Shown piece by piece: positions 1 to 21,320 of a stretch of DNA of 64,000 nucleotides. Numbering within the stretch: position 1 is the stretch's first letter; each line of letters starts with the position of its first letter. Position numbers and translations under genes: made by a program. The stretch comes from Planktothrix pseudagardhii. GTDB lineage: Bacteria; Cyanobacteriota; Cyanobacteriia; Cyanobacteriales; Microcoleaceae. The DNA lies in contig NZ_LR882967.1 of NCBI RefSeq assembly GCF_904830925.1, positions 3,362,106-3,426,105 of the forward strand, read 5' to 3'. The notes under the pieces were generated by a model that did not search any database, was not told the origin of the DNA, and saw only the letters and a program-made list of their open reading frames with translations.

Positions 1-792
1 TTAACTCAACCTGTAACGACTCGTCATGACGCTTCCCCGGAAGAACGAGAATTTGTTTTAAAACAGATTTATCAACAAGTTTTAGAACGGCAATTATATG
101 AGTCTGAACGGAAACAATTAGTTGATTTAGAAAAAGATTTTATCAAAGGAAAAATAGGGATTCGTCATTTCTTAAAAAGTTTAGCAGTTCGTCCGATTTA
201 TTTAGAGCTTTTTTATGAAAATAGCTCTAATATGAAATTTATTGAAAATGCCTGTAAACATTTTTTAGGACGAGCCCCCAAAAATAATGAAGAACTACAT
301 GAATGGGATGATATTTTAGTTCGTCATGGGGTTGGTGCCCTGGTTTCAGAGTTGGTTGATTCTGAAGAATATCGGAAATCCTTTGGTTATTTTACCATCC
401 CCTACTGGCATGAACACCGTTTTGAATCCGCAGGTGAATATATCGAAAATGAAAAGCTCGGTCATGAACACGCCGGACAAAGAGGGTGGGCAATTCCGAC
501 CCATTATCAACATGAATTACACATCGACTGTGATGGTGGAACCTGTGTTCGAGAGGAGGATAAATCTAAAGTTCAAGAGGTACCACCTATTGAGGAGGTT
601 TTAGATTTATCCACCGATACCAAAATGACACCTAAGCATATTCAACGGCTATCTCTGTGTGTCAAAGAAATTACAGAAATTCTGTCATTATATCCTCAAC
701 CTGTCACTCCCAAAGAGATTGAAACTGACCTTCAACAAAAGGTCTTGGAGTATGTTAGTATCACTAACGCTAATTTACTCTTTAAAAATTAA
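1..792 (+). CDS. Phycobilisome linker domain-containing protein (5' end outside the window)
   Basis: Frame 1 is open from base 1. The translation ...IYQQVLERQLYESERKQL...IRHFLKSLAVRPIYLELFYE...ACKHFLGRAP...DSEEYRKSFGYFTIPYW matches the PBS-linker (PF00427) signature. A ~100-aa C-terminal extension follows. Confidence 0.7.
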   Translation, partial: LTQPVTTRHDASPEEREFVLKQIYQQVLERQLYESERKQLVDLEKDFIKGKIGIRHFLKSLAVRPIYLELFYENSSNMKFIENACKHFLGRAPKNNEELHEWDDILVRHGVGALVSELVDSEEYRKSFGYFTIPYWHEHRFESAGEYIENEKLGHEHAGQRGWAIPTHYQHELHIDCDGGTCVREEDKSKVQEVPPIEEVLDLSTDTKMTPKHIQRLSLCVKEITEILSLYPQPVTPKEIETDLQQKVLEYVSITNANLLFKN

Positions 793-946: not shown

Positions 947-1324
947 TTGTTTTTGGATATTATGCAAATCAATAAATATCTCCATGCTGCTATTTTAGTG
1001 TCTAATTTAGAAAAATCTGAACAATTTTATAGTCAAGTGTTAAGCTTAGAAAAAGTTGAACGTCCGTTAAATTTTCCGGGTATTTGGTATCAAATTGGTG
1101 AGTTTCAAATTCATTTAATTCAAGCTGAAACTGTAATTAACGATCAAGTTAATAATCAGAAATGGGGACGAAATCGACATTTGGCTTTTGCTGTTGAAGA
1201 TTTAGAAACTGCGAAACAACAGTTAATGACTTATAATTGTTCTTTTCAAATGAGTGCTTCCGGTCGTGCTGCCTTGTTTACACAAGATCCTGATGGTAAT
1301 ATAATTGAATTAAATGAAGCATGA
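947..1324 (+). CDS. VOC family (glyoxalase/bleomycin-resistance/dioxygenase fold) protein
   Basis: 125 aa. HAAILVSNLEKSEQFYSQVLSL...HLAFAVEDL...DPDGNIIEL is the typical VOC beta-alpha-beta-beta-beta pattern. The stop overlaps the next start (ATGA). Confidence 0.6.
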   Translation: MFLDIMQINKYLHAAILVSNLEKSEQFYSQVLSLEKVERPLNFPGIWYQIGEFQIHLIQAETVINDQVNNQKWGRNRHLAFAVEDLETAKQQLMTYNCSFQMSASGRAALFTQDPDGNIIELNEA

Positions 1325-2616
1325 AAATTATTGCTTATTGTTATACTGATCCGTTGTTTGAACAACCCCCAGATCGGATAATTTGGGGATGGGAAGTGGA
1401 TCGGGTTTATCAAGATTTAGGCGAAAGAGAAGAACTAGAACAATTATTGAAAGATTGTGATTTAGAACCCCCAGAATATTTATTAATTCGACGGTTAGAA
1501 GAGTTAGGAGATTCTGTTTTAGAAGTGAGCGATCGCTTACAAAAATTAGAATCATTTCAAATTAATATTATTGCAATAGAATCCGATTTTAACACCTCTG
1601 AAACTCCTATTAATCGGAGTGATTTAATGCAATTATTGATAGAAATTCAAAATCGCCAACGGAGTCGCCGCATTCGTCAAGGACACGCTAAAAATCGAAT
1701 TAAAACCTTACCTCCACCGGGTAAAGCACCTTACGGATATCGACGGGGAAAAGACCGTTATATTTTAGATCGCAGCGTTTCTCCGATTGTTAAAGAGTTT
1801 TTTGAGCGGTTTTTAATTTATGGGTCTTTGCGAGGTGCGGTGCGCTATTTAGAAAAACGATATGGTAAAAAAATATCTGTCACAACGGGACGACGATGGT
1901 TAACAAACCCGGTTTATCGAGGGGATTTAGAATATCAAAATGGGGAGATTATTTCTAATACCCATATTCCGATTATTTCACGGGATGAAGCCGCCCAGAT
2001 AGATCGATTATTACGCCGAAATCAACGCCTTCCCCCCCGAACTGCGAGTGCGCCGCGTTCTTTAGCAGGGTTAGTTGTTTGTGGAGAATGTCAATCTTCC
2101 CTGACGGTTTCACGAGTTACAACCTATCGTAAAGATCAAGAATATTTGTATTTACGTCCTACAAATTGTCCGCGAAATCCTAAGTGCAAAGCCTTATCTT
2201 ATCAAACAGGATTAGAGTTAACGATTGAACGAATTTGTCAAGATTTACCAGAGGCGGTTTCTAGTTTAAATTTACCGGATTTACAAATTGTTAAACAAGG
2301 TATGATTCAGGAGATTAACCAAAAACAGGAGATTTTGTTACAAATTCCTGATTTATTAACTGCGGGAATATTAGATTTAGAAACAGCAGAGTTAAGAACT
2401 TATAAATTGCGGACAGAAATTTCTCAATTACAAGGAAAGTTAGCCCAACTTCCCCCCGTTAATTTAAAAGAAACAGCACAAGCCGTTTGTATTCCACAGT
2501 TTTGGCTAGATTTATCCGAACCTGAACGACGGTTTTATTTTCGAGAATTTATTCACCAAATTGAGATTATTCGAGATGGGGATAATTGGGAGTTAAAGCT
2601 AATCTTTATTTTTTAA
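1321..2616 (+). CDS. Large serine-recombinase family protein with resolvase-like N-terminus, recombinase domain and Zn-ribbon; catalytic Ser not conserved
   Basis: 431 aa. Resolvase-like motifs are present (LLIRRLEELGDS, IIAIESDF), followed by a recombinase domain (YGYRRGKDRYILD...) and a Cys-rich ribbon (CGECQSS...CPRNPKC). The N-terminus reads MKIIAYCYTDP where a canonical YARVSTxxQ is expected. Confidence 0.55.
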   Translation: MKIIAYCYTDPLFEQPPDRIIWGWEVDRVYQDLGEREELEQLLKDCDLEPPEYLLIRRLEELGDSVLEVSDRLQKLESFQINIIAIESDFNTSETPINRSDLMQLLIEIQNRQRSRRIRQGHAKNRIKTLPPPGKAPYGYRRGKDRYILDRSVSPIVKEFFERFLIYGSLRGAVRYLEKRYGKKISVTTGRRWLTNPVYRGDLEYQNGEIISNTHIPIISRDEAAQIDRLLRRNQRLPPRTASAPRSLAGLVVCGECQSSLTVSRVTTYRKDQEYLYLRPTNCPRNPKCKALSYQTGLELTIERICQDLPEAVSSLNLPDLQIVKQGMIQEINQKQEILLQIPDLLTAGILDLETAELRTYKLRTEISQLQGKLAQLPPVNLKETAQAVCIPQFWLDLSEPERRFYFREFIHQIEIIRDGDNWELKLIFIF

Positions 2617-2617
2617 T

Positions 2618-3646
2618 TTATACTTTAACACAATATTGATTCCGACCTTTTTGTTTTGCTTCATAAAGGGCTTGATCAGCAATTTCTAATAACTCTTCAG
2701 GAGAGGTATTCGGTTGAGGAATTCCATAAGAAATCCCGATACTGACCGTTACAATAGAACTCACCCTTGAATACTCATGATTAATTTTAAGCCGTTGGAC
2801 TTCTTGATGAATGGTTTTTGCGACTTTAAGTGCTCCTTGTAAATCCGTATTGGGAAGAATAATGGCAAATTCTTCTCCACCATAGCGAGCTACTAAATCT
2901 GTAGAATTATTAATAGATCGATCTAAGGCTTGGGCGACTAATTTCAAGCAAATATCTCCGGCGGGATGTCCATAATGATCATTATAATTTTTAAAATAAT
3001 CTAAATCACAAACCAGTAAAGCTAAGGGTTGCTGTTCTTCGATCATTTGTTTCCAAACTTGATCAAAATATTCATCAAAATGTCGGCGGTTAGCTAAACT
3101 GGTTAAACTATCACAAGAGGCTAAATTTTGCAATTGACGGTTCACAGTTTGTAAATTTTCCTCAGCTTTTTTACGGGTTTTAATTTCATTTTGTAATTGA
3201 TTATTTTGTTGTAATAATTTTTGATTTTGTGTCATTAATTGTTGTTTTAACAGACAAATTGTTAACTGATTTTTGACCCGTGCCAAGACTTCATCAACTT
3301 TGAACGGTTTCGTGATATAGTCTACCCCTCCTACAGAAAACGCTTTTATAATATCTTCAACTTGATTCAGCGCACTAATAAAAATAATAGGAATTTCATA
3401 GGTGTCTGGAGAGGATTTTAGCTGATTACATAACTCATATCCTGTGACCTGGGGCATTCTAATATCGAGTAAAATTAAATCGGGTTTTAAAGCGGTAATC
3501 GCGATCATTGCCATGTCAGCATTTAAGGCTTTGCGGACATAATATCCCTGTTGAGTTAACAACGCTGACAAAACCCGAATATTATCCGGTTCATCATCGA
3601 TGATGAGTAAATTTCCCTGAGTTGAAAAAGTTTCATCTGGGTTCAT
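2618..3646 (-). CDS. Response regulator receiver-GGDEF diguanylate cyclase
   Basis: REC motifs are present (LLIIDDEPDN...LILLDIRMPQVTGYE). A coiled coil follows, then a GGDEF domain with RYGGEEF and NRRHFDEY. Confidence 0.85.
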   Translation of the reverse strand: MNPDETFSTQGNLLIIDDEPDNIRVLSALLTQQGYYVRKALNADMAMIAITALKPDLILLDIRMPQVTGYELCNQLKSSPDTYEIPIIFISALNQVEDIIKAFSVGGVDYITKPFKVDEVLARVKNQLTICLLKQQLMTQNQKLLQQNNQLQNEIKTRKKAEENLQTVNRQLQNLASCDSLTSLANRRHFDEYFDQVWKQMIEEQQPLALLVCDLDYFKNYNDHYGHPAGDICLKLVAQALDRSINNSTDLVARYGGEEFAIILPNTDLQGALKVAKTIHQEVQRLKINHEYSRVSSIVTVSIGISYGIPQPNTSPEELLEIADQALYEAKQKGRNQYCVKV

Positions 3647-3649
3647 AAT

Positions 3650-4504
3650 TTACCATTGGGGAGTTAATGAAAGCAATTTAATTAATTCTTCTCCGGGTAA
3701 CGGTTTAGAAAATAAATATCCCTGCCCAAATCCACAATTTAATTCTTTAAGGATGGCTAATTGTTCAGGTAATTCAATCCCTTCAGCAACCACACTCATA
3801 TTCATGGTTTTAGCTAAACTAATAATCACAGGAATTAAGCCAACATTTTCCGATTCTAAGTTAAGACGTTGAACAAAGGATTTATCGACTTTTAGGGTGT
3901 CAACCGGAAAAGAATGGAGATAACTCAGGGAAGAATAACCCGTTCCAAAATCATCAATACTAATTAAAATATGACGTTTTCTGAGTTCTTTGAGAATGAT
4001 AGCTACATCCTTATCATTCTCCATAATCGCACTTTCGGTAATTTCCAATTTTAAACAATCAGGATCAAGTTGACTTTGTTCTAAAACTTGATCAATTTGT
4101 TCTAATAAATTGGGTTGAGCAAACTGTTTAACGGATAAATTAACACTAACAAATAAACTAGAATCCACTAAATTTTGTTTTTGCCAAGTTTGCAGTTGAT
4201 GACAGGCTTCAAATAAAACCCAATAGCCAATGGGAGTAATTAAACCCGTTTCTTCAGCAATGGGAATAAAGAGACCAGGTGGAACTAAACCCCGTTCAGG
4301 ATGACGCCATCGAACTAAGGCTTCAAATCCAGCAATTTTTCCGCTATTCAAATCGACAATTGGTTGATAATGAACGACTAACTCTTGCTGTTCCAGACCC
4401 CGACGTAAATCGGTTTCTAACTGTAATCGCTCTAAAGCAGCGGCGTGCATCACCGGATCAAAGATATGATATTGTCCTTTTCCTAATGCTTTAGCTCGAT
4501 ACAT
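3650..4504 (-). CDS. EAL domain c-di-GMP phosphodiesterase (C-terminal part of a disrupted REC-GGDEF-EAL gene)
   Basis: The ORF begins with the tail of a GGDEF domain (MYRAKALGKG). A full EAL domain follows (ELVVHYQPIVDL...EALVRWRHPERG...DDFGTGYSSLSYL). Confidence 0.75.
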   Translation of the reverse strand: MYRAKALGKGQYHIFDPVMHAAALERLQLETDLRRGLEQQELVVHYQPIVDLNSGKIAGFEALVRWRHPERGLVPPGLFIPIAEETGLITPIGYWVLFEACHQLQTWQKQNLVDSSLFVSVNLSVKQFAQPNLLEQIDQVLEQSQLDPDCLKLEITESAIMENDKDVAIILKELRKRHILISIDDFGTGYSSLSYLHSFPVDTLKVDKSFVQRLNLESENVGLIPVIISLAKTMNMSVVAEGIELPEQLAILKELNCGFGQGYLFSKPLPGEELIKLLSLTPQW

Positions 4505-4716
4505 AGCTGTGTCTGCATCACGCAGTAAATGTTCCGGTTCATTATAGTCTGAATGACCGATTACAATCCCAATACTGGCATTAATAAAAACTTCATGTCG
4601 TTCTAAATGAAAAGGTTTAGAAAAAGAGTCTAAAATCTGATCGGCTAATTCAATAACATGAGGAAAGTCGGGAATTTCTGTTAATAAAATTGCAAATTCA
4701 TCTCCTCCTAGACGGG

Positions 4717-5094
4717 CTAATGTATTCTGGGGTTTAATATAACTGTTAAATCGAGAACATCATCCAAAGCACTTAAAAAGATTACTGGAATTTCTGCGGT
4801 TTTAGCATTAGCTTTGAGATTCTGACAAACCTCATAACCATCCATTTCTGGCATCATAATATCCAGCAGAATTAAATCAGGAGCAACGGTTTGAGCCGCC
4901 GTTAATGCCATCGCACCATTTAAAGCTTTGCGTACATTGTATCCTTGACGAGTGAGCATTCGGGACAATAAATGGAGGTTGTCCGGTGTATCATCAACGA
5001 TGAGAATATCTTCAGTTTTTGTTAAATCCAGGTTGTAATGATTCATTTCAATTGGAAACAGATAAAATGGGGTACGGATTGAGGTCATTCCCAA
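4717..5094 (-). CDS. Receiver (REC) domain ORF, likely the N-terminal fragment of the disrupted REC-GGDEF-EAL gene
   Basis: Motifs ILIVDDTPDNLHLL...LILLDIMMPEMDGYEV...IPVIFLSA. The ORF terminates where a GGDEF domain should start. ARLGGDEF is encoded in another frame between 4505 and 4740. Confidence 0.6.
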   Translation of the reverse strand: MGMTSIRTPFYLFPIEMNHYNLDLTKTEDILIVDDTPDNLHLLSRMLTRQGYNVRKALNGAMALTAAQTVAPDLILLDIMMPEMDGYEVCQNLKANAKTAEIPVIFLSALDDVLDLTVILNPRIH

Positions 5095-7928: not shown

Positions 7929-9049
7929 TATATAGCACTTCCAAATGAGTTATAATAAATGTAAGGTTAGCAATAATCCCCCAAAGCTGGCAACGGAAAA
8001 TGAATATAATCGACGAAATAGACGATTTTATCAATCAGACAAAAGATCCTAGAGAAATTAAAAGAGCGATCGCTGTCAAACTCAAATTACAAGGTAAAGC
8101 CTACCGGGAAATTCAAGACTTATTACAAGTTTCTCAAGGATTTATTAGCCAATGGAAAAATCGGGTGCTTGTGGAAGGAGTAGACAGTTTAAAACTTCAA
8201 TATAAAGGAAGGAAAGGTTATCTAAGCCCTGAAGACAAACAGAAAATTATTGAAGAATTAAGGGAAAGAGATTGGTTAAGATTGTCTGATTTACAAGTTT
8301 TGTTAGAAAGGGAGTATGGAGTCGTGTTTCAATCCCATCAAAGTTATTATAGCTTGCTGGAAGAGGCTCGCATCAGTTGGAAAAAAAGCCAAAAAAAGAA
8401 TCCGGCTAAAAATGAGCAGTTAGTCCAAGAGAAAAAGGAAGAAATTGAAAAAAAGTTAGCGAGTTGGAAAGAGGAAATAGGGGCGGGAAAGCTGACAGTG
8501 TTTATGATTGATGAATGTCATCTTCTTTGGGGAGATATTTTAGGGTATGTTTGGGGAAGGACGGATCGAAGAATAGAAATTCCCATCAAAAATCAAAAAG
8601 AAAGGCAAACTTATTATGGAGCTTTAGATTACCAAACGAAAGAATTTATTATCAAAGGTTATGCGGCGGGCAATACAGAAAATACCGTAGACTTTCTCCA
8701 GTATTTACAACAGCAAAATCCGGGGAAAAGGTTGGCTATAGTCTGGGACAATGCCACTTATCATTGTTCTCAAAACTTTCGAGATTACTTAACTCAAGTT
8801 AATCAAAATTTATCGGAAGAAGAATGGCGGATTACTTGTGTAAATTTTGCTCCTAATGCGCCGGAGCAAAATCCGGTTGAAGATATTTGGTTACAAACCA
8901 AAAATTTCGTGAGAAAATTCTATCATTTATGCCCATCTTTTAAAGTAGTTAAGTGGCTATTTGAGTTTTTTGCTCAGGGGCAAATTTTTGATTTTCCCAA
9001 GCTTTTTATGTACGGGATTTTGCCACAACCTATTTAGGATTGCTATATA
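7929..9049 (+). mobile_element. IS630/Tc1-mariner family insertion sequence (~1.12 kb) with imperfect terminal inverted repeats and flanking TA
   Basis: Left end is TATATAGCACTTCCAAATGAGTT (from 7929). The reverse complement of the right end is TATATAGCAATCCTAAATAGGTT (ending 9049). About 17 of 23 positions match. The ends enclose a DDE transposase gene. Confidence 0.55.
8000..9037 (+). CDS. IS630 family transposase (HTH plus DDE_3 domain)
   Basis: N-terminal HTH-like region (EIKRAIAVKLKLQGKAYREIQDLLQVSQGFISQW). DDE region: VFMIDECHLLWGD...AIVWDNATYHCS...NFAPNAPEQNPVEDIW. Confidence 0.85.
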   Translation: MNIIDEIDDFINQTKDPREIKRAIAVKLKLQGKAYREIQDLLQVSQGFISQWKNRVLVEGVDSLKLQYKGRKGYLSPEDKQKIIEELRERDWLRLSDLQVLLEREYGVVFQSHQSYYSLLEEARISWKKSQKKNPAKNEQLVQEKKEEIEKKLASWKEEIGAGKLTVFMIDECHLLWGDILGYVWGRTDRRIEIPIKNQKERQTYYGALDYQTKEFIIKGYAAGNTENTVDFLQYLQQQNPGKRLAIVWDNATYHCSQNFRDYLTQVNQNLSEEEWRITCVNFAPNAPEQNPVEDIWLQTKNFVRKFYHLCPSFKVVKWLFEFFAQGQIFDFPKLFMYGILPQPI

Positions 9050-10008
9050 TGATTATTATTATAGAAGAAACCCATCCCTTAAATTTTAGATCATTTGTTA
9101 AATTATTGAACCAACTGCACTTAAGTTTTGTGATTGCGCCTCATCCAGATAGTGCGATTTTTCATGCAGAATATACGAATCCAGACGTTATTCTGATTCC
9201 CTTTGACCCCAACCAAGCTAATCCCCAAGAAACCTATCACAAGTTGAAGCAAGCTAAAATCACTGAAAATGTTCCGGTGTTATGGATGAATAGTTATTCT
9301 GACTTGAATGTACAATATCTAACGTCCTTTACCTCAACCCTTGAGGCGAATAATCCCTTGACAGCCTCGAATTTTTCCTTTGGTGATTTACCGATTGATA
9401 CAACGATTAAAAGTCTCAAAAATCAAATTGAAATGCAGCAAAAATTATTAATTAAATTACAAGCTGAAAACCAACACCTGAAACGTCTAGCTTCTTTAGA
9501 TGATTTAACTCAAGTAGCCAATCGTCGTCAATTTTATAGCTACTTACAAGAACAATGGCAATCCTGCCAAGAAGACTATCTTTCCATGATCTTATGTGAT
9601 GTGGATTTTTTCAAACTTTATAATGATACTTACGGTCATTTAGCCGGGGATTATTGTTTACAACAAATAGCCCAGGCTATTGAAACGGCAGTTCGTAGAG
9701 TTAGGGAACCAGAACCCTATTTAGTCGCCCGTTATGGGGGAGAAGAATTTGCTGTAATTTTACCCTATTTAGATCAAGAAAATGCGCGTAAAGTTGCTGA
9801 AGAAATTCAACTGCAAATTCGATATTTAAAAATTCCCCATCGTTCCTCTCCCATCCGTTCTTATATTACCAGTAGTTTAGGGGTTGCCTGTTCTATTCCC
9901 GGAGAAGAATCCCATTTACAAGAGTTGATTAGTGCGGCAGACAAAGCCATGTATCACGCCAAGTCAGAAGGACGAGATCAAGTTAAAGTCGCTTCAGATA
10001 TTCTCTAA
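9049..10008 (+). CDS. GGDEF diguanylate cyclase with degenerate N-terminal receiver-like domain
   Basis: ATG at 9049 (the ORF track begins at an in-frame TTG at 9040). Receiver-like N-terminus (IIIEETHP...PDVILIPFDP), then a coiled coil, then GGDEF motifs NRRQFYSY and RYGGEEF. Confidence 0.75.
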   Translation: MIIIIEETHPLNFRSFVKLLNQLHLSFVIAPHPDSAIFHAEYTNPDVILIPFDPNQANPQETYHKLKQAKITENVPVLWMNSYSDLNVQYLTSFTSTLEANNPLTASNFSFGDLPIDTTIKSLKNQIEMQQKLLIKLQAENQHLKRLASLDDLTQVANRRQFYSYLQEQWQSCQEDYLSMILCDVDFFKLYNDTYGHLAGDYCLQQIAQAIETAVRRVREPEPYLVARYGGEEFAVILPYLDQENARKVAEEIQLQIRYLKIPHRSSPIRSYITSSLGVACSIPGEESHLQELISAADKAMYHAKSEGRDQVKVASDIL

Positions 10009-11071: not shown

Positions 11072-14000
11072 CTAAAACAGAATAATATCATCGGAATTCA
11101 AGGATGTTACGCCTGTAATTCCCTCTAATTTAGCTAGAATTCGAGAATCATTTCCTGATGTGTTATTCCCATTGCCATCATAGATTAAGTAAGTATCCTT
11201 ACCATTATCAAAGGCAAATAGACTAGGGTTATTTGTAGGCAAGACATCGGTTGAAAGATTCGTTTGTACACTGAGGAGAATATTAGCTGCATCTGCAATT
11301 AAACTGGTTGATACGCTAATTTGATCACCCCCCACTTGACCCAAACCTTCAAAATTGTTAATGGAATCATAGAAACCACTGCCAATTTGAGTCGTAATTG
11401 CAGTTCCCACCGCATTAAAAGCAGTACCGCCTCCATCCAGTGCATCGCTATAAATAAACAGGTCTGTTTCCCCTAAGTTACCAATGAGGCTATCTCGTCC
11501 TAAACCCCCAAACAGGTTATCTTGTCCCGCGCCTCCATCGAGAAGGTCGTTTCCACTTCCCCCCGATAAACTATCATTACCATCATTTCCCCGCAGGCTG
11601 TCATTCCCCTCTAAACCGACGAGGGTATCATTTCCCCCCAAACCATTAAGGTTATCGCCAAAATTTCCTCCCGTTACTAAGTTCGGAGTTTCATCGGCTA
11701 AGGGTAATAATTCAATATTAATCTGACCTGTCGCCGTCCCCCCTTGACCATCACTAATCGTGTAGTTGAAACTATCCACCCCGGTATTACTTCCCAAACG
11801 AGTATACTGAACTGATGATCCCGATTGAGTCACTAACCCTTGGGCGGTGGGAGGATTATCCACAGAAGTCAACGTCAGGACATCTCCATCGGGGTCACTA
11901 TCGTTATCTAACGGAGAAATCGGGAATTGGATGCTATTATTGGTAAAAATTGGGCCATCAGTAACAGCAACAGGTAAATCATTAACCGCCGTAATATTAA
12001 TCGTAACCGTTTGACTGACCGCAGGATTTTCACCGTCACTCACGGTATATAAAAATACCCCGGCTGAACCATTAACATTAGCTTTTGGTACAAATTCTAA
12101 CTGACTAATTTCAGCACTCGTTAAGGTTTGACCAATAATAATAGAGTTAGTTTGACCCGTAATACGGACGATTCCTTTAGTGCTATCAGGAATACTATTA
12201 ACAGTAATAATTAACGGGTCATTATTGGGATCAACTGGGGATGAAATTCCCAAATTCTGAGTTATATCTTCAGTAATATTAACGGTCGTATTCCCTTGAA
12301 CTACTGGAGGAAGATTTAAGCCAGCAATTCCAGCAAAGTCATTAACATTAAGGGTTGTCACACCATTAACGTTGTCTAATTTTGCCAAAATTCGAGAATC
12401 ATTACCCGTTGTATTATCACCATTACCATCATAAATGAGGTAAGTGCTACTGCCATCATCAAAAGCAAATAGACCCGGATTTGTACCCGGAATCACATCT
12501 GCGGTAATATTGGTTTGTACCGTTGTGGCAATATTGGCAAAGGATTGAATCACCGTTGTGGCAAAATTAATCTGATCTCCGACCGCAGCCCCTAAGCCTT
12601 CAAAATCGGTGATAGTATCATATAAAGCACTTCCAATTTGAGCTTTAATCTCTGTATTAGAACTTGCATTAAAACCCGACCCACCGCCATCATTAGCAGT
12701 TTCATAACGAAATTGGTCGCTTCCCTCATTTCCAGTCATCGTATCCGGGGTTAAACCGCCATTCAGGGTATCCTCTCCAATTCCTCCCTGTAACAGATCT
12801 GTTCCGCTTCCCCCTGATAAACTATCATTACCATCATTTCCCCGCAGGGTGTCATTCCCCCCCAAACCGCTTAGGGTGTCATTTCCCCCCAAACCATTGA
12901 GGTTATCGCTAAAATTTCCTCCCGTTACTAAGTTCGGAGTTTCATCGGCTAAGGGTAACAATTCAATATTAATCTGACCTGTCGCCGTCCCCCCTTGACC
13001 ATCACTAATCGTGTAGTTGAAACTATCCACCCCGGTATTACTTCCCAAACGAGTATACTGAACTGATGATCCCGATTGAGTCACTAACCCTTGGGCGGTG
13101 GGAGGATTATCCACAGAAGTTAACGTTAGAGCATCTCCATCGGGGTCAGTGTCATTGGCTAAGGGAGAAATCGGGAATTGGATGCTATTGTTAGTAAAAA
13201 TTGGGCCATCGGTAACAGCAACAGGAGGCTGATTTAAAGCAATCACCGTAATGGTACTTGCCGCTGTATTACTATTGCTCGTTCCATCATTCACCTGAAC
13301 CTGTACTAGGCGGGTGGTGGTATTGGGAGGATTAGCTGTATTGTTATAAACAACTTGTCCAATGGCGGTTTGATAAGCCGCTAGTGAGGCATTCCCCGTT
13401 AAGGTTAAAATTCCGGTGGTGCTGTTATAACTACTGGCGGTAATCCCCGAAGGTAACGAACCATTAGCTGATAAACTTTCCCCACCGCCATTGAGTGGAT
13501 TTGTTACAGTAATTGTGGCGGACTGGATGGTGGTATTGTCTGCATCCGTAATTACAATACTACTCCCACTCGCGATCGCAACAGCAGGTTGTCCTTGTTG
13601 AAAGGCTACTTGGGTATTATTTCCCGCTTGGCTACCATTTAAGTCTAGGGTTGGGGGTTGATTGGGATTAACAGTAATGTTAACCGTCGCGCTACTGGTT
13701 CCACCCTGACCATCACTAATGGTATACAAGAAACTAGCCGGCCCTGTATAGTTATTGACTGGGGTAAACAGAACATTTCCATTACTGAGGGTAACCGTCC
13801 CATTTGTGGGATTACTAACTTGTGTAATGGTTAACGGATCATTATTCGGATCGGTATCATTTGCTAAGAGAGTGGAAGAGGATATTGTTAAGAGTTGATT
13901 TTGCGTTCCCACCACACTATCATTCACCGCATTCGGTGGCTGATTCGGCTGATTAATATTAATATTAACCGTCGCGCTACTGGTTCCGCCCTGACCATCA

Positions 14001-17000
14001 CTAATGGTATACAAGAAACTAGCCGGCCCTGTATAGTTATTGACTGGGGTAAACAGAACATTTCCATTACTGAGGGTAACAGTTCCATTTGTGGGATTAC
14101 TAACTTGAGTAATCGTTAACGGATCATTATTCGGATCGGTATCATTTGCTAAGAGAGTGGAAGAGGATATTGTTAAGAGTTGATTTTGCGTCCCCACCAC
14201 ACTATCATTCACCGCATTCGGTGGCTGATTCGGCTGATTAATATTAATATTAACCGTCGCGCTACTGGTTCCGCCCTGACCATCACTAATGGTATACAAG
14301 AAACTAGCCGGCCCTGTATAGTTATTGACTGGGGTAAACAGAACATTTCCATTACTGAGGGTAACAGTTCCATTTGTGGGATTACTAACTTGAGTAATCG
14401 TTAACGGATCATTATTCGGATCGGTATCATTTGCTAAGAGAGTGGAAGAGGATATTGTTAAGAGTTGATTTTGCGTCCCCACCACACTATCATTCACCGC
14501 ATTCGGTGGCTGATTCGGCTGATTAATATTAATCGTACTAGAAGCTGTTTGGGGGCCACCACTACCTGTATTTCCGTTATCCGTTGTCACAATTTGGAGA
14601 GTTGCCGAGGTATTCAAGGATGCAGGAGGTGCGAACGTTAAACCATTAAGAGCCGTATTAATATTTTCCAGACGACCTACTAAGGTTACTGTTGTTGTTC
14701 CATCGCCAGAAATTTCCACATTAGCCGGTGTTGCACCCAAGGTTAAAGTTCCCGTACTAGCTGTTAAGGTAACTTGAATCGGGTTTCCATCAGCATCCGG
14801 GTCACTAATCAAAATTTGATTATTATTAGCTTGACTAAATACAATCGGTTGACTACCATTTGTTAATTGTGTTCCTGGAACCGTATTAACGGGAGGATTA
14901 TTAACCGCATCAATAGTAACTGTGCTAATTGCAATATTACTATCATTTTCATGATCCGTAACGACTACATCAATGATTCGATTTTCAGGATCAGGATTTT
15001 GGGAAGTATTACTATAAACAACTTGAGACAGTGCAATTTCATAGCTAGAAATGGGTGCTGTTCCGGTTAGGAGAATAATTCCTGTTGTCGGATCATAAGC
15101 TCCTGCTGTAATCCCTGAAGGTAAGGCTCCTTGTATTGACAAACCTTCTACGTCACCATTGGGACTATTAATTAAAGTAATCGTTGCTGAAGTCAAATCT
15201 GAATCATCTGCATCAAGAATACTCACACTTCCAGTAATTGCGACCGGAGTTGTCCCTTCCACAAAAACAGTGCTGTAATTATTGCCCGGTTGGGAACTAT
15301 TAAGATCTAAAATTGGAGGCTCATTAATAGATATAACTTCAACGGTAATAGTAGCCGTTCCCGTTGCTCCATTATCATCTCGGATTTGATAATCAAATGT
15401 ATCTAAACCAGAAAAATTTTTATCAGGAGTATAAGTAATCATTCTACTATCCCGATTTAAAACTGCTGTCCCATTAGACGGTTGAGTAACTTCTGTCACC
15501 GTCAGCAGTCCAACCCCTGTGTCATTACTGGTGATTGTATTAGAGGGAATCTCCAATAAACTATTTTGTAAACCCGATACCGTATCATTTTCAGCCTGCA
15601 AAACGGCTGGAGTTGGGGGTTCAACCGGAGGAGGTGTGGGTTGAGAGGGAGTTGGTATGGGTGGAGTGGTTGGGGTCGTGGTCGGTGGAGTGGTTGGGGT
15701 TGGGGTCGGTGGGGTTGTTGGGGTTGGGGTCGGTGGGGTTGTTGGGGTTGGGGTCGGTGGGGTTGTTGGGGTTGGGGTCGGTGAGGTTGTTGGGGTTGGG
15801 GTCGGTGGGGTTGTTGGGGTTGGGGTCGGTGAGGTTGTTGGGGTTGGGGTCGGTGGGGTTGTTGGGGTTGGGGTTGGGGGAGTTGTGGGAGGAAGAGGGA
15901 CAGTGGGGTCAAGAACAAAGTTAGATTCGCTTAAGGTAGTCGCATTAACCCCTTGTAAAACCGCTAAAAATTCACCCGTATTTTTATCTTTGATAATTGT
16001 ATTACTGGCATTGGAGGCTTGACCTTGGGAAATTTCGAGATCTTGGAATGTTAATCCTCCCGATAACCCAAGCTGATCAGTTGTGGTAAAATCTGTAATA
16101 ATATCTGCTAATTCAATACTGGTTCCGCCTGTAGTTCCTGTAATAAAGCTGCCCCCATTGGGAGCTTGAGTAATAACATAACCCAAAACAAAAATATCAT
16201 CTCCCGCACCTCCAGTCAGGGTGTCTACTCCGGCTCCCCCTGCTAATAAATCATTCCCCCCATCACCGGAGAGGAAATCTCGACCTTTACCGCCATTGAG
16301 AATATCTTCCCCCGCACCTCCATATAAACTATCCGCTCCATTATCTCCATTGAGAACATCATCTCCGGCATTTCCAAACAGTTGATCGTTATCATCACCG
16401 CCAGAGACAGTATCATTTCCTAAATCTCCGTAGAGGATATCCGCCCCTTGACCTCCGACTAAACTATCGTCATCTCCGCCACCAAAGAGTTGATCATCTC
16501 CCGCACCGCCACTCAAGAAATCCTGACCAGAATTTCCTGATAAAATATCGTCTCCATCTCCTCCGTTAACGCTATCATTACCCACTTCACCCGATAGCGT
16601 ATCATTACCTTTATCCCCATAGAGGAGGTCATCTTCGCCTCCCCCTCGGATACTATCATTGCCTTGGCCACCATATAAACTATCTGCCTCGGTTCCGCCA
16701 TTCAAGGTATCATTATCTCGATCACCGAAAGCCAGATCACTCCCGGCATCACCGAAGATCAAATCATCCCCTTGACCTCCACGCAAACAGTCATCATCAG
16801 CGCCTCCGACAATGGCATCATTTCCTTCATTACCATTAATTTGATCTTGTCCTGCATCTCCTTGTAGAAGGTCATTTCCTCCTAAACCAAAGATACTGTC
16901 ATTTCCGTCTAAGCCAGAAATCGTATCATTTTGATTACTTCCCAGAATCGTATCATCACCTTCTGTACCTGTGCCCGCACCTTGAATCCGAATGGGTTGG

Positions 17001-17539
17001 GACTCGCTGGGGCTAGGACTAGGGGTGGCTGTGGGACTGGGTGTGGCTGTGGGACTGGGTGTGGCTGTGGGACTGGGTGTGGCTATGGGACTGGGTGTGG
17101 CTGTAGGGCTAGGAGTTGCAGTTGGACTGGGAGTTGCTGTAGGGCTAGGGGTTGCAGGGGTATATCCATCGGGAACAAAAATTGTACTTCCGGCTGGCCC
17201 TGCTTGAATCTCTCCTGTTGTTTGACCCTCTAAAGTTTGATATTGACCATCTGCTGTTTTGGCTAAATAAACAGGTGTATTCGTTTCAATTGATATCGCT
17301 TCTAAAATCGGTTCATCCGGTACAAAAAGCACTCCCCCAGCAGCCCCAGGTAAAGTTGTTCCGATGCCACTAGAAAGGGGGACTAAATTTTGAATATTTC
17401 CAGGGAATGTTTCAAATTTACCCGAAAATTCTGTGGTCGGAAAAATTAAGATTCCATTTCCTGTATTGTACAAACCATTACTCGGAGAAATTCTTAAGGC
17501 TAAAGTAGCAGGAGTTGTATTGATAGCAGAACTTGTCAT
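11072..17539 (-). CDS. Giant secreted RTX/cadherin-like repeat protein (2155 aa)
   Basis: Many GGxGxDxxx nonapeptides (GGAGDDQLFGGGDDDSLVGGQGADIL...). Pro-Thr linkers ([15 protein letters not shown]...; PSPTATPSPTAT...). Tandem ~95-aa Ig/cadherin-like modules (three near-identical copies of NQPPNAVNDSVVGTQNQLLTISSSTLLANDTDPNNDPLTITQV...). No N-terminal Sec signal. Confidence 0.85.
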   Translation of the reverse strand: MTSSAINTTPATLALRISPSNGLYNTGNGILIFPTTEFSGKFETFPGNIQNLVPLSSGIGTTLPGAAGGVLFVPDEPILEAISIETNTPVYLAKTADGQYQTLEGQTTGEIQAGPAGSTIFVPDGYTPATPSPTATPSPTATPSPTATPSPIATPSPTATPSPTATPSPTATPSPSPSESQPIRIQGAGTGTEGDDTILGSNQNDTISGLDGNDSIFGLGGNDLLQGDAGQDQINGNEGNDAIVGGADDDCLRGGQGDDLIFGDAGSDLAFGDRDNDTLNGGTEADSLYGGQGNDSIRGGGEDDLLYGDKGNDTLSGEVGNDSVNGGDGDDILSGNSGQDFLSGGAGDDQLFGGGDDDSLVGGQGADILYGDLGNDTVSGGDDNDQLFGNAGDDVLNGDNGADSLYGGAGEDILNGGKGRDFLSGDGGNDLLAGGAGVDTLTGGAGDDIFVLGYVITQAPNGGSFITGTTGGTSIELADIITDFTTTDQLGLSGGLTFQDLEISQGQASNASNTIIKDKNTGEFLAVLQGVNATTLSESNFVLDPTVPLPPTTPPTPTPTTPPTPTPTTSPTPTPTTPPTPTPTTSPTPTPTTPPTPTPTTPPTPTPTTPPTPTPTTPPTTTPTTPPIPTPSQPTPPPVEPPTPAVLQAENDTVSGLQNSLLEIPSNTITSNDTGVGLLTVTEVTQPSNGTAVLNRDSRMITYTPDKNFSGLDTFDYQIRDDNGATGTATITVEVISINEPPILDLNSSQPGNNYSTVFVEGTTPVAITGSVSILDADDSDLTSATITLINSPNGDVEGLSIQGALPSGITAGAYDPTTGIILLTGTAPISSYEIALSQVVYSNTSQNPDPENRIIDVVVTDHENDSNIAISTVTIDAVNNPPVNTVPGTQLTNGSQPIVFSQANNNQILISDPDADGNPIQVTLTASTGTLTLGATPANVEISGDGTTTVTLVGRLENINTALNGLTFAPPASLNTSATLQIVTTDNGNTGSGGPQTASSTININQPNQPPNAVNDSVVGTQNQLLTISSSTLLANDTDPNNDPLTITQVSNPTNGTVTLSNGNVLFTPVNNYTGPASFLYTISDGQGGTSSATVNININQPNQPPNAVNDSVVGTQNQLLTISSSTLLANDTDPNNDPLTITQVSNPTNGTVTLSNGNVLFTPVNNYTGPASFLYTISDGQGGTSSATVNININQPNQPPNAVNDSVVGTQNQLLTISSSTLLANDTDPNNDPLTITQVSNPTNGTVTLSNGNVLFTPVNNYTGPASFLYTISDGQGGTSSATVNITVNPNQPPTLDLNGSQAGNNTQVAFQQGQPAVAIASGSSIVITDADNTTIQSATITVTNPLNGGGESLSANGSLPSGITASSYNSTTGILTLTGNASLAAYQTAIGQVVYNNTANPPNTTTRLVQVQVNDGTSNSNTAASTITVIALNQPPVAVTDGPIFTNNSIQFPISPLANDTDPDGDALTLTSVDNPPTAQGLVTQSGSSVQYTRLGSNTGVDSFNYTISDGQGGTATGQINIELLPLADETPNLVTGGNFSDNLNGLGGNDTLSGLGGNDTLRGNDGNDSLSGGSGTDLLQGGIGEDTLNGGLTPDTMTGNEGSDQFRYETANDGGGSGFNASSNTEIKAQIGSALYDTITDFEGLGAAVGDQINFATTVIQSFANIATTVQTNITADVIPGTNPGLFAFDDGSSTYLIYDGNGDNTTGNDSRILAKLDNVNGVTTLNVNDFAGIAGLNLPPVVQGNTTVNITEDITQNLGISSPVDPNNDPLIITVNSIPDSTKGIVRITGQTNSIIIGQTLTSAEISQLEFVPKANVNGSAGVFLYTVSDGENPAVSQTVTINITAVNDLPVAVTDGPIFTNNSIQFPISPLDNDSDPDGDVLTLTSVDNPPTAQGLVTQSGSSVQYTRLGSNTGVDSFNYTISDGQGGTATGQINIELLPLADETPNLVTGGNFGDNLNGLGGNDTLVGLEGNDSLRGNDGNDSLSGGSGNDLLDGGAGQDNLFGGLGRDSLIGNLGETDLFIYSDALDGGGTAFNAVGTAITTQIGSGFYDSINNFEGLGQVGGDQISVSTSLIADAANILLSVQTNLSTDVLPTNNPSLFAFDNGKDTYLIYDGNGNNTSGNDSRILAKLEGITGVTSLNSDDIILF
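11560..13260. repeat. Dispersed ~0.45-kb near-identical duplication inside the same gene (11560-12000 vs 12820-13260)
   Basis: Both copies encode LNQPPVAVTDGPIFTNNSIQFPISPL(A/D)NDTDPDGD(A/V)LTLTSVDNPPTAQGLVTQSGSSVQYTRLGSNTGVDSFNYTISDGQGGTATGQINIELLPLADETPNLVTGGNF followed by RTX repeats. Confidence 0.8.
13681..14535. repeat. Three tandem 285-bp repeats inside the giant RTX gene (copies 2 and 3 identical, copy 1 near-identical)
   Basis: Unit starts at 13681, 13966 and 14251, each beginning TAACCGTCGCGCTACTGG. The identical antisense ORFs 13895-14119 and 14180-14404 in the ORF track are a by-product of the repeat. Confidence 0.9.
15640..15900. repeat. 24-bp tandem repeats encoding the Pro-Thr linker (PTPTPTTP)n
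   Basis: Repeating GGTTGGGGTCGGTGGGGTTGTTGG units. Similar coding repeats occur at 16990-17150, 19630-19810 and 21040-21140. Confidence 0.8.
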
Positions 17540-17545
17540 AAGATT

Positions 17546-17585
17546 AAGTAATTAGTAATCAGTAATTAGTAATCAGTAATTAGTC
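17546..17585. repeat. Heptamer tandem repeat (AGTAATT/AGTAATC)n in the intergenic region between the two RTX genes
   Basis: agtaattagtaatcagtaattagtaatcagtaattagt. STRR-like. Confidence 0.85.
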
Positions 17586-17684
17586 GTAGGGACAGGTTCA
17601 TCCAGATGAGTGATTATTCACAAAGATCTAAGAGAACCTGCCCTTACCAGCTATTTGTACCAATAGTTAATCGTCAACTGTCAA

Positions 17685-20600
17685 CTAGATAATGACAAAA
17701 TCACTAGGCGTAATTAAGGTACTAATATTGCTGGTTGCTGGATCAATAGACGGTAAAATTCCTAAATCAAAAGCCGGGAGACTATCATCACTTAAATTTG
17801 GATCATAGCCCATCACATAAGCACCCGGGAAAGCGGCATAAGACAAGTTATTGCGATAGACAAAGAAAGCGGCAGTATCACTGGAACCTTTTTGATTTTT
17901 CAAAGCTGCATTGACCGCTTGAACATTATCAAAGGTATCTTGGAAAATGATCACTTGTTTATTACTAATATCATCCCCTGTAGAACCCAGATTAGAAACG
18001 ATTATTCCTTGTAGAGGAACAACGGTTCCTTCTGCGGTGGTAAAACCGGGGAAACCAAGAGAACTAAACAGGAATCGATCATCGCCATTAACATTAAATT
18101 CTGTGATCACATCAACGCCTTCTGCGGGAGCTAAATAGTAGTAAGAATTATTACCCACATTCCCAATTAAACTATCAGCCCCGGAGCCTCCAGCTAAGGT
18201 ATCATCATCTTCACCACCAAAGATTGTGTCATTGCCACCATCCCCAAAGATGACGTCATTACCAATTCCCCCAAACAAACTATCTAAGCCATCTCCAGCA
18301 TAGATAGTATCTTCTCCAAAATCACCCAAAATCGAGTCATTTCCAGCTTCACCAAAGATGGAATCATCTCCCGTTCCTGCTGAAACGCTATCTGCCCCTG
18401 AACCACTACTAATAGTATCGTCTCCATCTCCACCGGTGATAGAATCATTGCCATCACCAGCAAAAATGGTGTCGTTATTCTCTCCGGCATCAATAGTATC
18501 GTTATCTGCACCCCCGAGAACTAAGTCTCGACCCACTCCGGCAAAAATTAGGTCTTGTCCTTCTTCTCCATACAGAGAATCATCTCCAGCATTTCCAGTG
18601 AGGGAATCATTTCCACTGCCCCCTAAAAGGGTATCGTTCCCAATACCACTAATGAGAATATCATCATTATTCCCACCGGAGAGTAAATTACTATCATCTC
18701 CAGCAACTAAGGTGTCATTCCCATCTTCTCCTAACAAGGTATTGCGACCTGCACCTCCATCCAGAGAGTCATTTCCTTGACCTCCAAATAGAGAATCATT
18801 CCCAATTTGACCCAGGAGAATATCGTCTTCTTCATCTCCTTGCACAACATCATTTCCTTCTCCCCCATCGAGAGAATCTCGTCCGCTTCCTCCTTGTAAA
18901 ACATCTCGGTTGCCTAGTCCTAAGAGGGTATCATTTCCAGCAAATCCTCTGATATTTTCACTTAAACCACTACCTGTAATGAAATCATCGCCGTCCGTAC
19001 CGGAAATAATATCATCAACAATGGTGATACTAAAGGCATTCTGGGTTGTCGTCCCAATGTTATCAGTGAGAACGAAAAGAAAGTCGTCTTCTCCTGATAG
19101 ATTTCGAGAATTATATTCAATGGAACCGTTGTTAATATTTTCTTGAGTAAACCTCTCTCCCACATTAATAACTTGAGGTGTAGACCCGATGGCTTGTAAA
19201 TTCCCTAAGCTGGGTTCTTGAGTAATTTGGTAAAAAATTTCATTCGGGGGATTATCAGGGTCTACTGCCAAAAGATTTCCAGCAGTAAGATTTTCCACAT
19301 CATTAAGCGCAATAATAATCCCATTATTCACTAATAATGTCGGGGGAACATTAACAGTGATTAAGACTTGAGCCGTGGACGTTAAGCCATAACTGTTTTG
19401 AATGGTATAGGGAAAGGTTGATGGCCCTGTAAAACCTGGAATAGGGGTGAACGTAATATTTCCTCCAGAGGTAATCGCTACACTACCATTGGCAACTGTC
19501 CCGGTACTGACTAACGTGAGTTGACTTCCTTGGGGGTCGGTGTCATTTACTAACACGTTAAAGGTGACAGAACCATCGGGAGTTCGTTTTACGGTGTCAT
19601 TTTGAGCAATGGGGGGTTGTAACGGGGGAGTGGTTGGCGTCGGTGGAGTCGTTGGTGTGGGAGTTGTTGGTGTGGGTGGTGTTGTTGGGGTGGGAGATGT
19701 TGTTGGTGTGGGTGGTGTTGTTGGAGTCGGTGGTGTTGTTGGAGTCGGTGGTGTTGTTGGTGTGGGTGGTGTTGTTGGAGTCGGTGGTGTTGTTGGAGTC
19801 GGTGGTGTTGTTGGAGATGGAGTTGGAATCGGAATAATCGTACCGGAAATGGGAGTAAAACTATCCGCGTTGATGGTGGTGCTATTTACCCCAATGAGAA
19901 CGGCAATATAATCTCCTGCACTGCCGTTTCTAATAATCGTATTCCCGGCATTTTCAGCACTTTGGGTAATCGATAAGTCACTAAATTGTAAACCCCCAGC
20001 TAAACCAATGCGATCGCCCAATTCAAAATCATTCACAATTTGAGCGTCTTCTAAATTCCCTCCTCCACTTTCGGGAGTCATCACGAAGGTATCATTTCCT
20101 GAGCCACCTGTGAGGGTATCAATGCCTTTACCACCCCAGAGAAAATCATCTCCAGTTTCACCCGAAATTTGATCATCTCCTTCGCCTCCGAAGGCAGTAT
20201 CGTTACCAACGCCACCAAATATTGTATCGTTGCCTTGATTTCCTTGGAGACTATCAGCACCGTCATTTCCAAACAACAAGTCTGCTTCGTCTCCGCCTGT
20301 TACCGTATCATTTCCAGCATCCCCCCAGAGGACATCACTACCTTTATCTCCATAGACAAGATCATTGCCTTCTCCACCTCTAACACTATCGCCTCCTTGA
20401 CCTCCATAAAGGCTATCATTTCCCAAATTCCCAATGACGGTATCGTTTCCGAGTTGTCCTAATCCAGTATCATCTCCTTCACTACCATCGAGAAAATCAT
20501 TATCCTTGCCGCCATTGAGTTCGTCGTTACCTTCTCCTCCGGTGAGGCTATCATTTCCTTCATTACCGTAGAGGGTATCATTGCCTTCATCCCCTCGAAG

Positions 20601-21320
20601 TTCATCATTTCCCGCTAAACCAAAGATGGTATCGTCTCCACCTAAACCGTTGATCACATCATTTCCAGAGGAACCTGTAATATAATCGCTGGTTTCTGTT
20701 CCTTTACCAATTCCTTCAATAATAATCGGGCGATTCCCCGCTAACACTTGAATAAAAACTTGGGCTGGGGCGGTTCCTTGTTCAATCGTATAACTAAAAC
20801 TATCGACTCCAAAAAAATTCGGGTCAGGAGTATAAGTAAAAATTCCAGCCCCATTAAACACTAAAGTTCCATTAGAAGTTGAGCTAAATTGAGCAATACT
20901 GATACTGGTTCCACTTCCTCCGGGAATAGAATCATTTTCCAGAACATTAAAAAAAGTTGCTTGTTCAAAGTTCGTCTGAAAAAAGTCATTATTAGCAATC
21001 GGAGCCGGATTTGTCCCGCCACTTCCAGAAGGTGTAGGTGTAGGGGGTGTGGTGGGGGATGTGGTGGGGGGTGTGGTGGGGGATGTTGTAGGAGGTGTTG
21101 TGGGGGTGGGAGATGTTGTGGGGGTGGGAGATGTTGTTGGGGTGGGTGCTGGGGGATTTTGAGGGACGAAAATTACATCACCATTGGCACCAGGTAACGT
21201 TTCTCCAACTAACCCGGTGAAGCTTTGAAAGATACCCGGAAGTTCTGTCGGAAAAATTAACAGGGTTTCCTCTGTATTAATAACTCTGGCCCTAACAGTA
21301 TTAATTGCTGCACTTGTCAT
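17685..21320 (-). CDS. Large secreted RTX-repeat protein (1211 aa) with Pro-Thr linkers
   Basis: Dense GGxGxDxxx repeats ([24 protein letters not shown]...). Two PT-rich linkers. The N-terminus MTSAAINT... resembles that of the upstream giant gene. Confidence 0.85.

Follow-up and report, generated by a model that had tools for sequence, protein, structure and literature searches.

Large serine recombinases (LSRs) are known from phages, from integrative elements and from elements that are excised during development, and they are widely used as genome-engineering tools. We describe here a gene of Planktothrix pseudagardhii whose product keeps the architecture of these enzymes and appears to have lost their chemistry. 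The window analysed, a stretch of 64,000 nucleotides from contig NZ_LR882967.1 (assembly GCF_904830925.1, positions 3,362,106 to 3,426,105), contains an intact open reading frame (ORF) for a 431-residue LSR homologue, directly preceded by a gene for a VOC (glyoxalase/Fos-like) protein. In the homologue and its family, the nucleophilic Ser and all three active-site Arg residues are replaced by a conserved set of residues (Tyr, Asp/Glu/Asn, Glu and Asp). The explanation that we favour, with a probability of roughly 0.6, is that the gene's product is a non-catalytic paralogue of the XisF-type LSRs that was domesticated in the distant past and that binds and possibly bridges DNA.

The closest described system is XisF, the recombinase that excises the fdxN element of Anabaena and Nostoc. 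XisF (NF041201) is the best-scoring curated family for the homologue (139.8 bits), comes from the same phylum and has the same full-length domain order, with a profile-profile probability of 100% over residues 20-420. However, the score of 139.8 bits, like those of other family members (92-142), compares with an equivalog cut-off of 375; the identity is about 21-28%; and the homologue is without the Ser nucleophile and three Arg residues, lies outside interrupting elements, is vertically inherited, and also occurs in non-heterocystous lineages. The predicted fold likewise matches all modules of the phage LSRs (Listeria A118/LI, 4kis; Bxb1, 9iu2; PhiC31, 9rah/9ibl; and 9dxd/9y66), with which sequence motifs are shared in the recombinase and zinc-ribbon domains, but here the identity is 12-19%, and the catalytic site, the phage context and any known att site or directionality factor are absent. 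A third likeness is a functional analogy. Resolvase dimers at accessory sites (Tn3 site III, 5cy1; the Sin regulatory complex, 2r0q) provide DNA architecture without catalysis, and both structures are among the Foldseek matches to the N-terminal domain and the following helix, alphaE. Those, however, are competent proteins in a non-catalytic position, whereas in the Planktothrix protein the active site would be lost permanently, and the protein is a large rather than a small recombinase.

The active site was compared between 98 family sequences (the window protein, 80 orthologues translated from species-representative genomes and 17 representatives of divergent clusters) and the 16 nearest proteins outside the family, which form an active outgroup. 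Alignment columns are named after the positions of gamma-delta resolvase to which we take them to be equivalent. In the outgroup, the columns of R8, S10, R68 and R71 hold Arg, Ser, Arg and Arg, respectively, in 16 of 16 proteins. In the family, global alignment places Tyr at R8 in 97 of 98 sequences (Y8 in the window protein), Asp, Glu or Asn at S10 in 93 (Asp10), Glu or Asp at R68 in 94 (E61), and Asp, Asn or Glu at R71 in 97 (D64). These substitutions reverse the charge of the former DNA-phosphate-binding pocket, while Y6, D32 (gamma-delta D36) and R36 (gamma-delta R45) are retained. The losses are not random, because the replacement residues are themselves conserved in the 98 sequences; and because this conservation extends across the phylum, the Ser-less site lies far beyond chance. 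An enzyme with such a site would be unable to cut and rejoin DNA by the serine-recombinase mechanism. An earlier note on this DNA had claimed that the catalytic Ser and the neighbouring Arg are replaced by Asp and Tyr, which the alignment with the 16 active LSRs bears out (Y8 falls on the Arg, D10 on the Ser). The claim is, if anything, understated, as two further catalytic Arg residues are also gone.

Several other observations bear on the absence of the nucleophile. The protein begins MKIIAYCYTDPLFEQ, and its Ser-less N-terminus is shared by the orthologues in 80 of 80 genomes. Independently of any alignment, no invariant Ser occurs within residues 1-19 of the 98 family sequences: position 7 is Ser in 44 of them, and position 9 is Ser or Thr in 83. 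Ser is found at position 10 in a single member (P0131), in which position 8 is Cys and the DRLxR position lacks an Arg. There is an in-frame TGA at 1315-1317, two codons 5′ of the ATG, and therefore no upstream start is able to supply a Ser motif; such an alternative start is further ruled out by the sequence Met-Lys-Ile-Ile-Ala-Tyr, which opens the gene in 80 of 80 related genomes. Profile alignment confirms the second cluster of substitutions. With hhalign, the family and the active group align over residues 20-420 (probability 100%, E 2e-56), E60/E61/D64 being paired with D/R/R, and D32/R36 with D/R.

The remainder of the LSR fold, including the recombinase domain and the Cys-ribbon, is retained, as the earlier note had also held. 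Pfam matches are found to Resolvase (PF00239, residues 28-126, 29.4 bits versus a cut-off of 23.3), Recombinase (PF07508, residues 154-234, 46.5 versus 21.1) and Zn_ribbon_recom (PF13408, residues 248-292, 30.2 versus 25.3). The Resolvase match spans profile positions 36-140 only, and because it begins at position 36, the part of the profile with the catalytic Ser is unmatched. Sequence comparison with the PDB gives as relatives only the DNA-binding C-terminal domains of the Listeria A118 integrase, the recombinase domain aligning to 4kis (the A118 integrase DNA-binding region) and to 6dnw. An AlphaFold2 (AF2) model built on a 46-sequence alignment (A3) has a mean predicted local distance difference test score (pLDDT) of 87.3; a model from a shallow alignment (pLDDT 57.8) was discarded. 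The elements of the model follow the LSR order, with a b-a-b N-domain, the 29-residue helix alphaE, the recombinase domain, the zinc ribbon, two long antiparallel helices and a C-terminal hairpin. The N-domain is modelled as b1 (residues 3-9), b2 (28-33), aB (37-48), b3 (53-56), aD (66-78) and b4 (82-85). The two long helices (321-347 and 353-375, pLDDT 80-95) are predicted to form an antiparallel coiled coil. Foldseek returns as top PDB matches the cryo-electron microscopy structures of full-length serine integrases on DNA (9dxd, 9dxf, 9y66 and 9dxh; Bxb1, 9iu2; PhiC31, 9rah and others), together with 4kis; catalytic domains of small resolvases and Sin score lower, and the N-domain matches those of TP901-1, Sin and gamma-delta.

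The DNA-binding modules, namely alphaE, the recombinase domain, the linker between the recombinase and zinc-ribbon domains (RD-ZD linker) and the zinc ribbon, are the most conserved parts of the family. In alphaE, H122, A123 and R126 are conserved in at least 95% of members; the recombinase domain carries the motifs PPPGKAPYGYRRG, LRGAVRYL, WLTNPVYRGD and EAAQIDRLLRRN; the RD-ZD linker reads ASAPRSLAGLV; and the zinc-ribbon residues C254, C257, C283 and C289 are invariant or nearly so, the first three also across active LSRs. In LSR-DNA complexes, as in the work on 4kis, the modules that hold these most conserved motifs contact DNA. The conservation is accompanied by a redistribution of charge. 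The N-domain has a mean net charge of -9.5 in the family (-14 in the window protein) versus +0.2 in active relatives, whereas alphaE and the recombinase domain carry more positive charge than their counterparts in active enzymes (+5.7 versus +2.3 in the outgroup for alphaE, +12.5 versus +7.0 for the recombinase domain, and +18 versus +9 for the two together). Outside the DNA-binding modules, the tip of the predicted coiled coil, GILDxETAxLRxYKL, is nearly invariant, with G349, D352, E354, T355, R359 and Y361 invariant in the family alignment (A1), which points to a conserved protein-protein contact.

Selection and descent separate this gene from the remains of a mobile element. In comparisons with the two nearest orthologues (87-88% identical; one from Planktothrix sp. 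PCC 11201, the other from a metagenome genome), the ratio of nonsynonymous to synonymous substitution rates (dN/dS) is 0.12-0.135 for the whole gene, 0.13-0.16 for the N-domain, 0.05-0.06 for the recombinase domain and 0.13-0.19 for the zinc-ribbon and coiled-coil part. Every domain is under purifying selection. A relative is found in at least 455 species-representative genomes. Identity to full-length orthologues is 87-92% within Planktothrix, 68-75% in Limnospira, Lyngbya, Microcoleus, Kamptonema and Trichodesmium (Oscillatoriales), and 63-70% in Nostocales, Chroococcidiopsis, Pleurocapsales, Chroococcales (Gloeothece, Rippkaea), Coleofasciculales and Leptolyngbyales. Cluster representatives from Gloeomargaritaceae, Elainellaceae and the hot-spring Synechococcus JA-3-3Ab group are 41-51% identical, the value for Gloeomargaritaceae being 46% and that for Thermostichus 41-42%. 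Because identity to the window protein falls with cyanobacterial taxonomic distance, the gene appears to have been inherited vertically in this phylum.

The family is also sharply bounded. In an exhaustive search of representative proteins, full-length representatives of the family have E values of 1e-76 or lower, and the next proteins follow at 4e-19 with 28% identity; these are XisF equivalogs (383-438 bits versus the cut-off of 375). No member was found by tblastn in 50,697 phage and 72,556 plasmid records, whose only matches were integrases of Firmicutes and mycobacteria that are at most 27% identical. There are no phage genes around the homologue in the window, and the flanks of the loci consist of housekeeping genes, order-specific apart from the VOC gene. 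By these indications, the gene resides on neither a mobile nor an interrupting element. The earlier proposal of an intact reading frame, as opposed to a recent pseudogene, is thus upheld by the dN/dS values and by orthologues that reach back to Thermostichus.

The one neighbour conserved across cyanobacterial orders, when all ORFs of the 80 loci were clustered, is the VOC gene; the family that comes after it is found in 32 loci. In 76 of the 80 genomes, the homologue is preceded on its own strand by a VOC orthologue (55-86% identical), and in a lineage whose homologue is only 46% identical to the window protein the two genes adjoin with a 3-bp gap. Residues H8, Q49, H51, H73 and E116 of the VOC protein are conserved in at least 95% of the 76 orthologues, the first four in all of them, and the protein is probably an active metalloenzyme. 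Its described relative is SMU1112c/YaeR (3l7t, uncharacterised), to which there is a PDB match and a weak NCBIfam match (40.6 bits versus a cut-off of 140). The two share the VOC fold and conserved metal-ligand positions, but the partner is not an equivalog, and it has His51, not Glu, at the second ligand position.

The spacing of the two genes varies. In the window, the start codon of the homologue (1321-1323) overlaps the VOC stop codon (TGA, 1322-1324), so the ATGA overlap described in the earlier note is real. Among the 76 paired genomes, the distance from the VOC stop to the start of the homologue is a 4-bp or 1-bp overlap in 6, 0-49 bp in 24, 50-199 bp in 24, 200-699 bp in 14 and 700 bp or more in 8. 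It follows that the ATGA coupling is a local feature, confined to Planktothrix and a few other lineages; the pairing of the VOC gene with the homologue is ancient. The earlier suggestion of translational coupling consequently fits this locus but only 6 of the 80 genomes, the others having gaps of 0-200 bp or more, and a shared VOC neighbour holds for 76 of 80 genomes but not for deep lineages such as Thermostichus. In the locus of a divergent member (P0126, 50% identity; L084, metagenome contig SRR11785054_50762), the gene directly upstream, at 3169-3504, also overlaps by 4 bp. It was considered as a VOC homologue and rejected; its 111-residue product does not resemble the VOC partner, and no Pfam hit is recorded for it.

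We suggest that the homologue acts as a dimer, formed through alphaE, that would bind DNA through the recombinase and zinc-ribbon domains, and that the conserved coiled-coil tip together with the N-domain may bridge or loop two sites. The binding, which we infer, is probably sequence-specific, and the bridging would resemble, by analogy, that of resolvase dimers at accessory sites, which are architectural without catalysis. The gene would usually be co-transcribed with that of the VOC metalloenzyme, which points to a shared pathway. Of the earlier idea of a domesticated DNA-binding protein, then, the domestication is supported by the loss of residues, the purifying selection and the vertical inheritance, and DNA binding is likely from the modules retained.

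Four points weigh against this explanation. The acidic pocket is conserved rather than decayed, and a purely architectural model leaves it unexplained. Residues 1-19 are left unaligned by hhalign, and the placement of Y8 and D10 is based on the global alignment, on equal spacing from Met1 and Tyr6, and on the predicted strand b1. In Thermostichus, the homologue has the gene of an S1-domain protein and chlL-por-chlN beside it rather than the VOC gene, which is likewise not adjacent in two further divergent lineages; the partnership is therefore not obligatory. Finally, no conserved non-coding block that might be a relic att site or an operator was found beside the gene pair across genera: k-mer counts in 56 non-redundant regions upstream of the VOC gene returned only HIP1 and promoter-like TTGAC and TAGATT words, and when the upstream, intergenic and downstream regions were all compared with one another by BLASTN, only those from the same genus were similar.

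The first of these points suggests that the pocket does something, such as binding a metal, a ligand or a partner. Since an architectural role leaves the pocket unexplained, the main rival is that it has become a new functional centre, either a divalent-metal site for nuclease or phosphotransfer chemistry, or a pocket that senses a ligand or partner and controls DNA binding; in the latter case, there could be a link to the product or substrate of the VOC enzyme. The resolvase catalytic domain structurally resembles the 5′-nuclease and Toprim folds, which have acidic clusters. The substitutions are conserved and are all acidic or polar (D/E/N10, E60, E61 and D64), D32 and R36 are kept, the N-domain is under purifying selection, and the partner is a conserved metalloenzyme with an H/H/H/E ligand set. 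However, Asn occurs at position 10 in 13 of the 98 sequences and at position 64 in 8, which is unusual for essential metal ligands, and there is no match to a nuclease, Toprim or receiver family in Pfam or NCBIfam. We regard such a centre as unlikely, if worth keeping in mind.

A bolder reading joins the acidic centre to the architectural model. The LSR scaffold might have been rebuilt so that an acidic metal or ligand centre switches a site-specific DNA-bridging protein, with the VOC enzyme making or removing the signal, and the synapsis machinery of the integrase (the coiled coil and N-domain) would then pair or loop chromosomal sites. Cyanobacteria are often polyploid. This is a speculation to which we assign a low probability; if true, it would be the first host-domesticated LSR with a function other than recombination, and a chromosome-organising or regulatory factor of phylum-wide distribution.

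It is also possible, although we doubt it, that the homologue is a repressor or activator of its own VOC operon and nothing more. The same-strand adjacency in 76 of 80 genomes and the retention of LSR-type DNA-binding domains are what would be expected of such a regulator. Opposed to it are the absence of a conserved operator-like motif 5′ of the VOC gene or between the genes across genera, where only TTGAC k-mers recur, and the persistence of a protein with equally conserved motifs where the VOC gene is not adjacent. In addition, a 431-residue, four-module protein with a coiled coil exceeds the needs of a local repressor.

Less probable still is a role as a regulatory or decoy subunit of active XisF-type recombinases, in which mixed oligomers or the occupancy of att sites would control mobile DNA or the excision of elements. 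The nearest active relatives are indeed XisF equivalogs of the same phylum, and the protein retains both alphaE and the coiled coil, through which LSRs oligomerise. An identity of 21-28% to XisF-type proteins is nevertheless low for mixed oligomers, and many lineages without heterocysts carry the family, whose sequences are conserved to a far greater degree than those of the fast-evolving recombinases of elements.

That the protein is an active recombinase with a different nucleophile, either Thr/Ser9 or Tyr6/Tyr8, we consider very improbable. Position 9 is Thr or Ser in 83 of the 98 sequences, and Y6 and Y8 are nearly invariant; but in the other 15 sequences position 9 is C, I, Q, G, V, L, A, R or W, the three transition-state Arg residues are replaced by Tyr or acidic residues, and no member lies within a mobile element. 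A pseudogene left by the recent inactivation of an integrase in a decaying prophage or island, which the missing catalytic residues and an IS630-type transposase about 5 kb away might bring to mind, is ruled out for practical purposes by the intact ORF, a dN/dS of about 0.13, hundreds of full-length orthologues across the phylum, the lack of members in phage and plasmid records and the lack of phage genes nearby.

The recruited serine recombinases covered in a review of mobile-element recruitment are all catalytically active (PMC8987985). In the full-text literature, which leaves most subscription journals outside its scope and where the sources consulted were, among others, a survey of the xis genes of heterocystous cyanobacteria (PMC4874684) and one of cyanobacterial recombination and repair genes (PMC5101192), we found neither a description of a catalytically inactive, host-conserved LSR clade nor reports on phenotype, expression or binding for the family. 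No curated family for the clade was found. Databases name its members only "recombinase family protein" or "DNA invertase Pin-like", and look-ups of locus tags for Synechocystis 6803, S. elongatus 7942 and Anabaena 7120 through protein searches and clusters likewise returned generic names only. This annotation wrongly suggests mobile DNA, and it can mislead programs that find prophages and islands as well as pipelines that mine integrases. A clade that has long been without the chemistry and yet is under strong constraint in most orders of cyanobacteria would clearly exemplify the conversion of a serine integrase into a host protein. Cyanobacterial genetics would gain a candidate DNA-binding protein that is conserved and unstudied and has a conserved enzyme as its partner; the structural biology of LSRs would gain a naturally occurring variant in which functions are separated, DNA recognition and coiled-coil interactions being present and catalysis absent.

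Table 1. Positions of the gene pair, and of the domains and active-site codons of the LSR homologue, numbered from the first nucleotide of the window.
Feature	Position	Strand	Basis
VOC (glyoxalase/Fos-like) metalloenzyme gene, 120 residues	962..1324	+	Pfam Glyoxalase PF00903, 40.6 bits versus cut-off 20.6
LSR homologue gene, predicted to be catalytically dead	1321..2616	+	431 residues plus stop; ORF list, Pfam, orthologues 63-92% identical
ATGA overlap of VOC stop and LSR-homologue start	1321..1324	+	Sequence
N-terminal resolvase-fold domain, residues 1-98, remodelled and strongly acidic	1321..1614	+	AF2, charge, dN/dS 0.13-0.16
Codons Y8-T9-D10 in place of the R-V-S nucleophile motif	1342..1350	+	Alignment of 98 family and 16 outgroup sequences
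Codons E60-E61-L62-G63-D64 in place of the D-R-L-x-R catalytic motif	1498..1512	+	Alignment; hhalign pairing agrees
alphaE long helix, residues 99-130, family motif GHAxNR at its end	1615..1710	+	AF2 helix 99-127
Recombinase domain, residues 131-245, most conserved part	1711..2055	+	Pfam PF07508; dN/dS 0.05-0.06
Zinc-ribbon domain, residues 246-300, Cys254/Cys257/Cys283/Cys289	2056..2220	+	Pfam PF13408
Predicted coiled-coil insertion, residues ~301-380, conserved tip GILDxETAxLRxYKL	2221..2460	+	AF2 helices 294-314, 321-347, 353-375
C-terminal segment, residues 381-431, FWxDLSExERRFYFREF and final beta-hairpin	2461..2613	+	Aligns with XisF-type C-terminus

Two further features concern the ends of the LSR-homologue gene. 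Within the 3′ end of the VOC gene, at 1277-1305 on the plus strand, there is a near-consensus sigma-70-type match, TTTACA-17 nt-TATAAT (11 of 12 positions), which ends 16 nucleotides 5′ of the ATG. This may be an internal promoter, in a region that is AT-rich; such matches are, in total, no more numerous than in shuffled sequences. At the other end, the stop codon (2614-2616) is separated by 1 nucleotide from that of a convergent receiver-GGDEF gene (2618-2620, minus strand), which leaves no space for separate terminators.

The genes near the homologue in the window comprise a phycobilisome-linker-domain protein, cyclic di-GMP signalling genes, cemA, hybrid kinases, RTX/cadherin proteins and one IS630-type transposase. 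The window start cuts the linker-domain gene (1-792, plus strand), whose product consists of a PF00427 domain and a C-terminal extension of about 130 residues without a family match. Only in the two loci most closely related to this one (L001 and L002) does this gene adjoin the VOC gene, so the adjacency is local. It is followed by a GC-rich hairpin at 799-816 and a HIP1 octamer, GCGATCGC, at 845-852; HIP1 occurs 27 times in the 64-kb window, whose GC content is 38.5%.

On the minus strand, 3650-5094 is a broken orthologue of a single 608-residue receiver-GGDEF-EAL gene of Planktothrix sp. PCC 11201. Residues 5-109 of the intact protein match 5067-4750, and residues 242-608 match 4753-3653 in another frame; about 130 residues are missing, which looks like an internal deletion with a frameshift. 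The IS630-type transposase (8000-9037, plus strand), with DDE_3 and HTH domains, ends 2 nucleotides before a GGDEF-domain ORF that starts with TTG (9040-10008), and the element may have inserted into this ORF or just ahead of it. Farther along, 11072-21320 on the minus strand encodes two adjacent giant proteins of 2155 and 1211 residues, with RTX calcium-binding repeats and bacterial cadherin/Ig domains.

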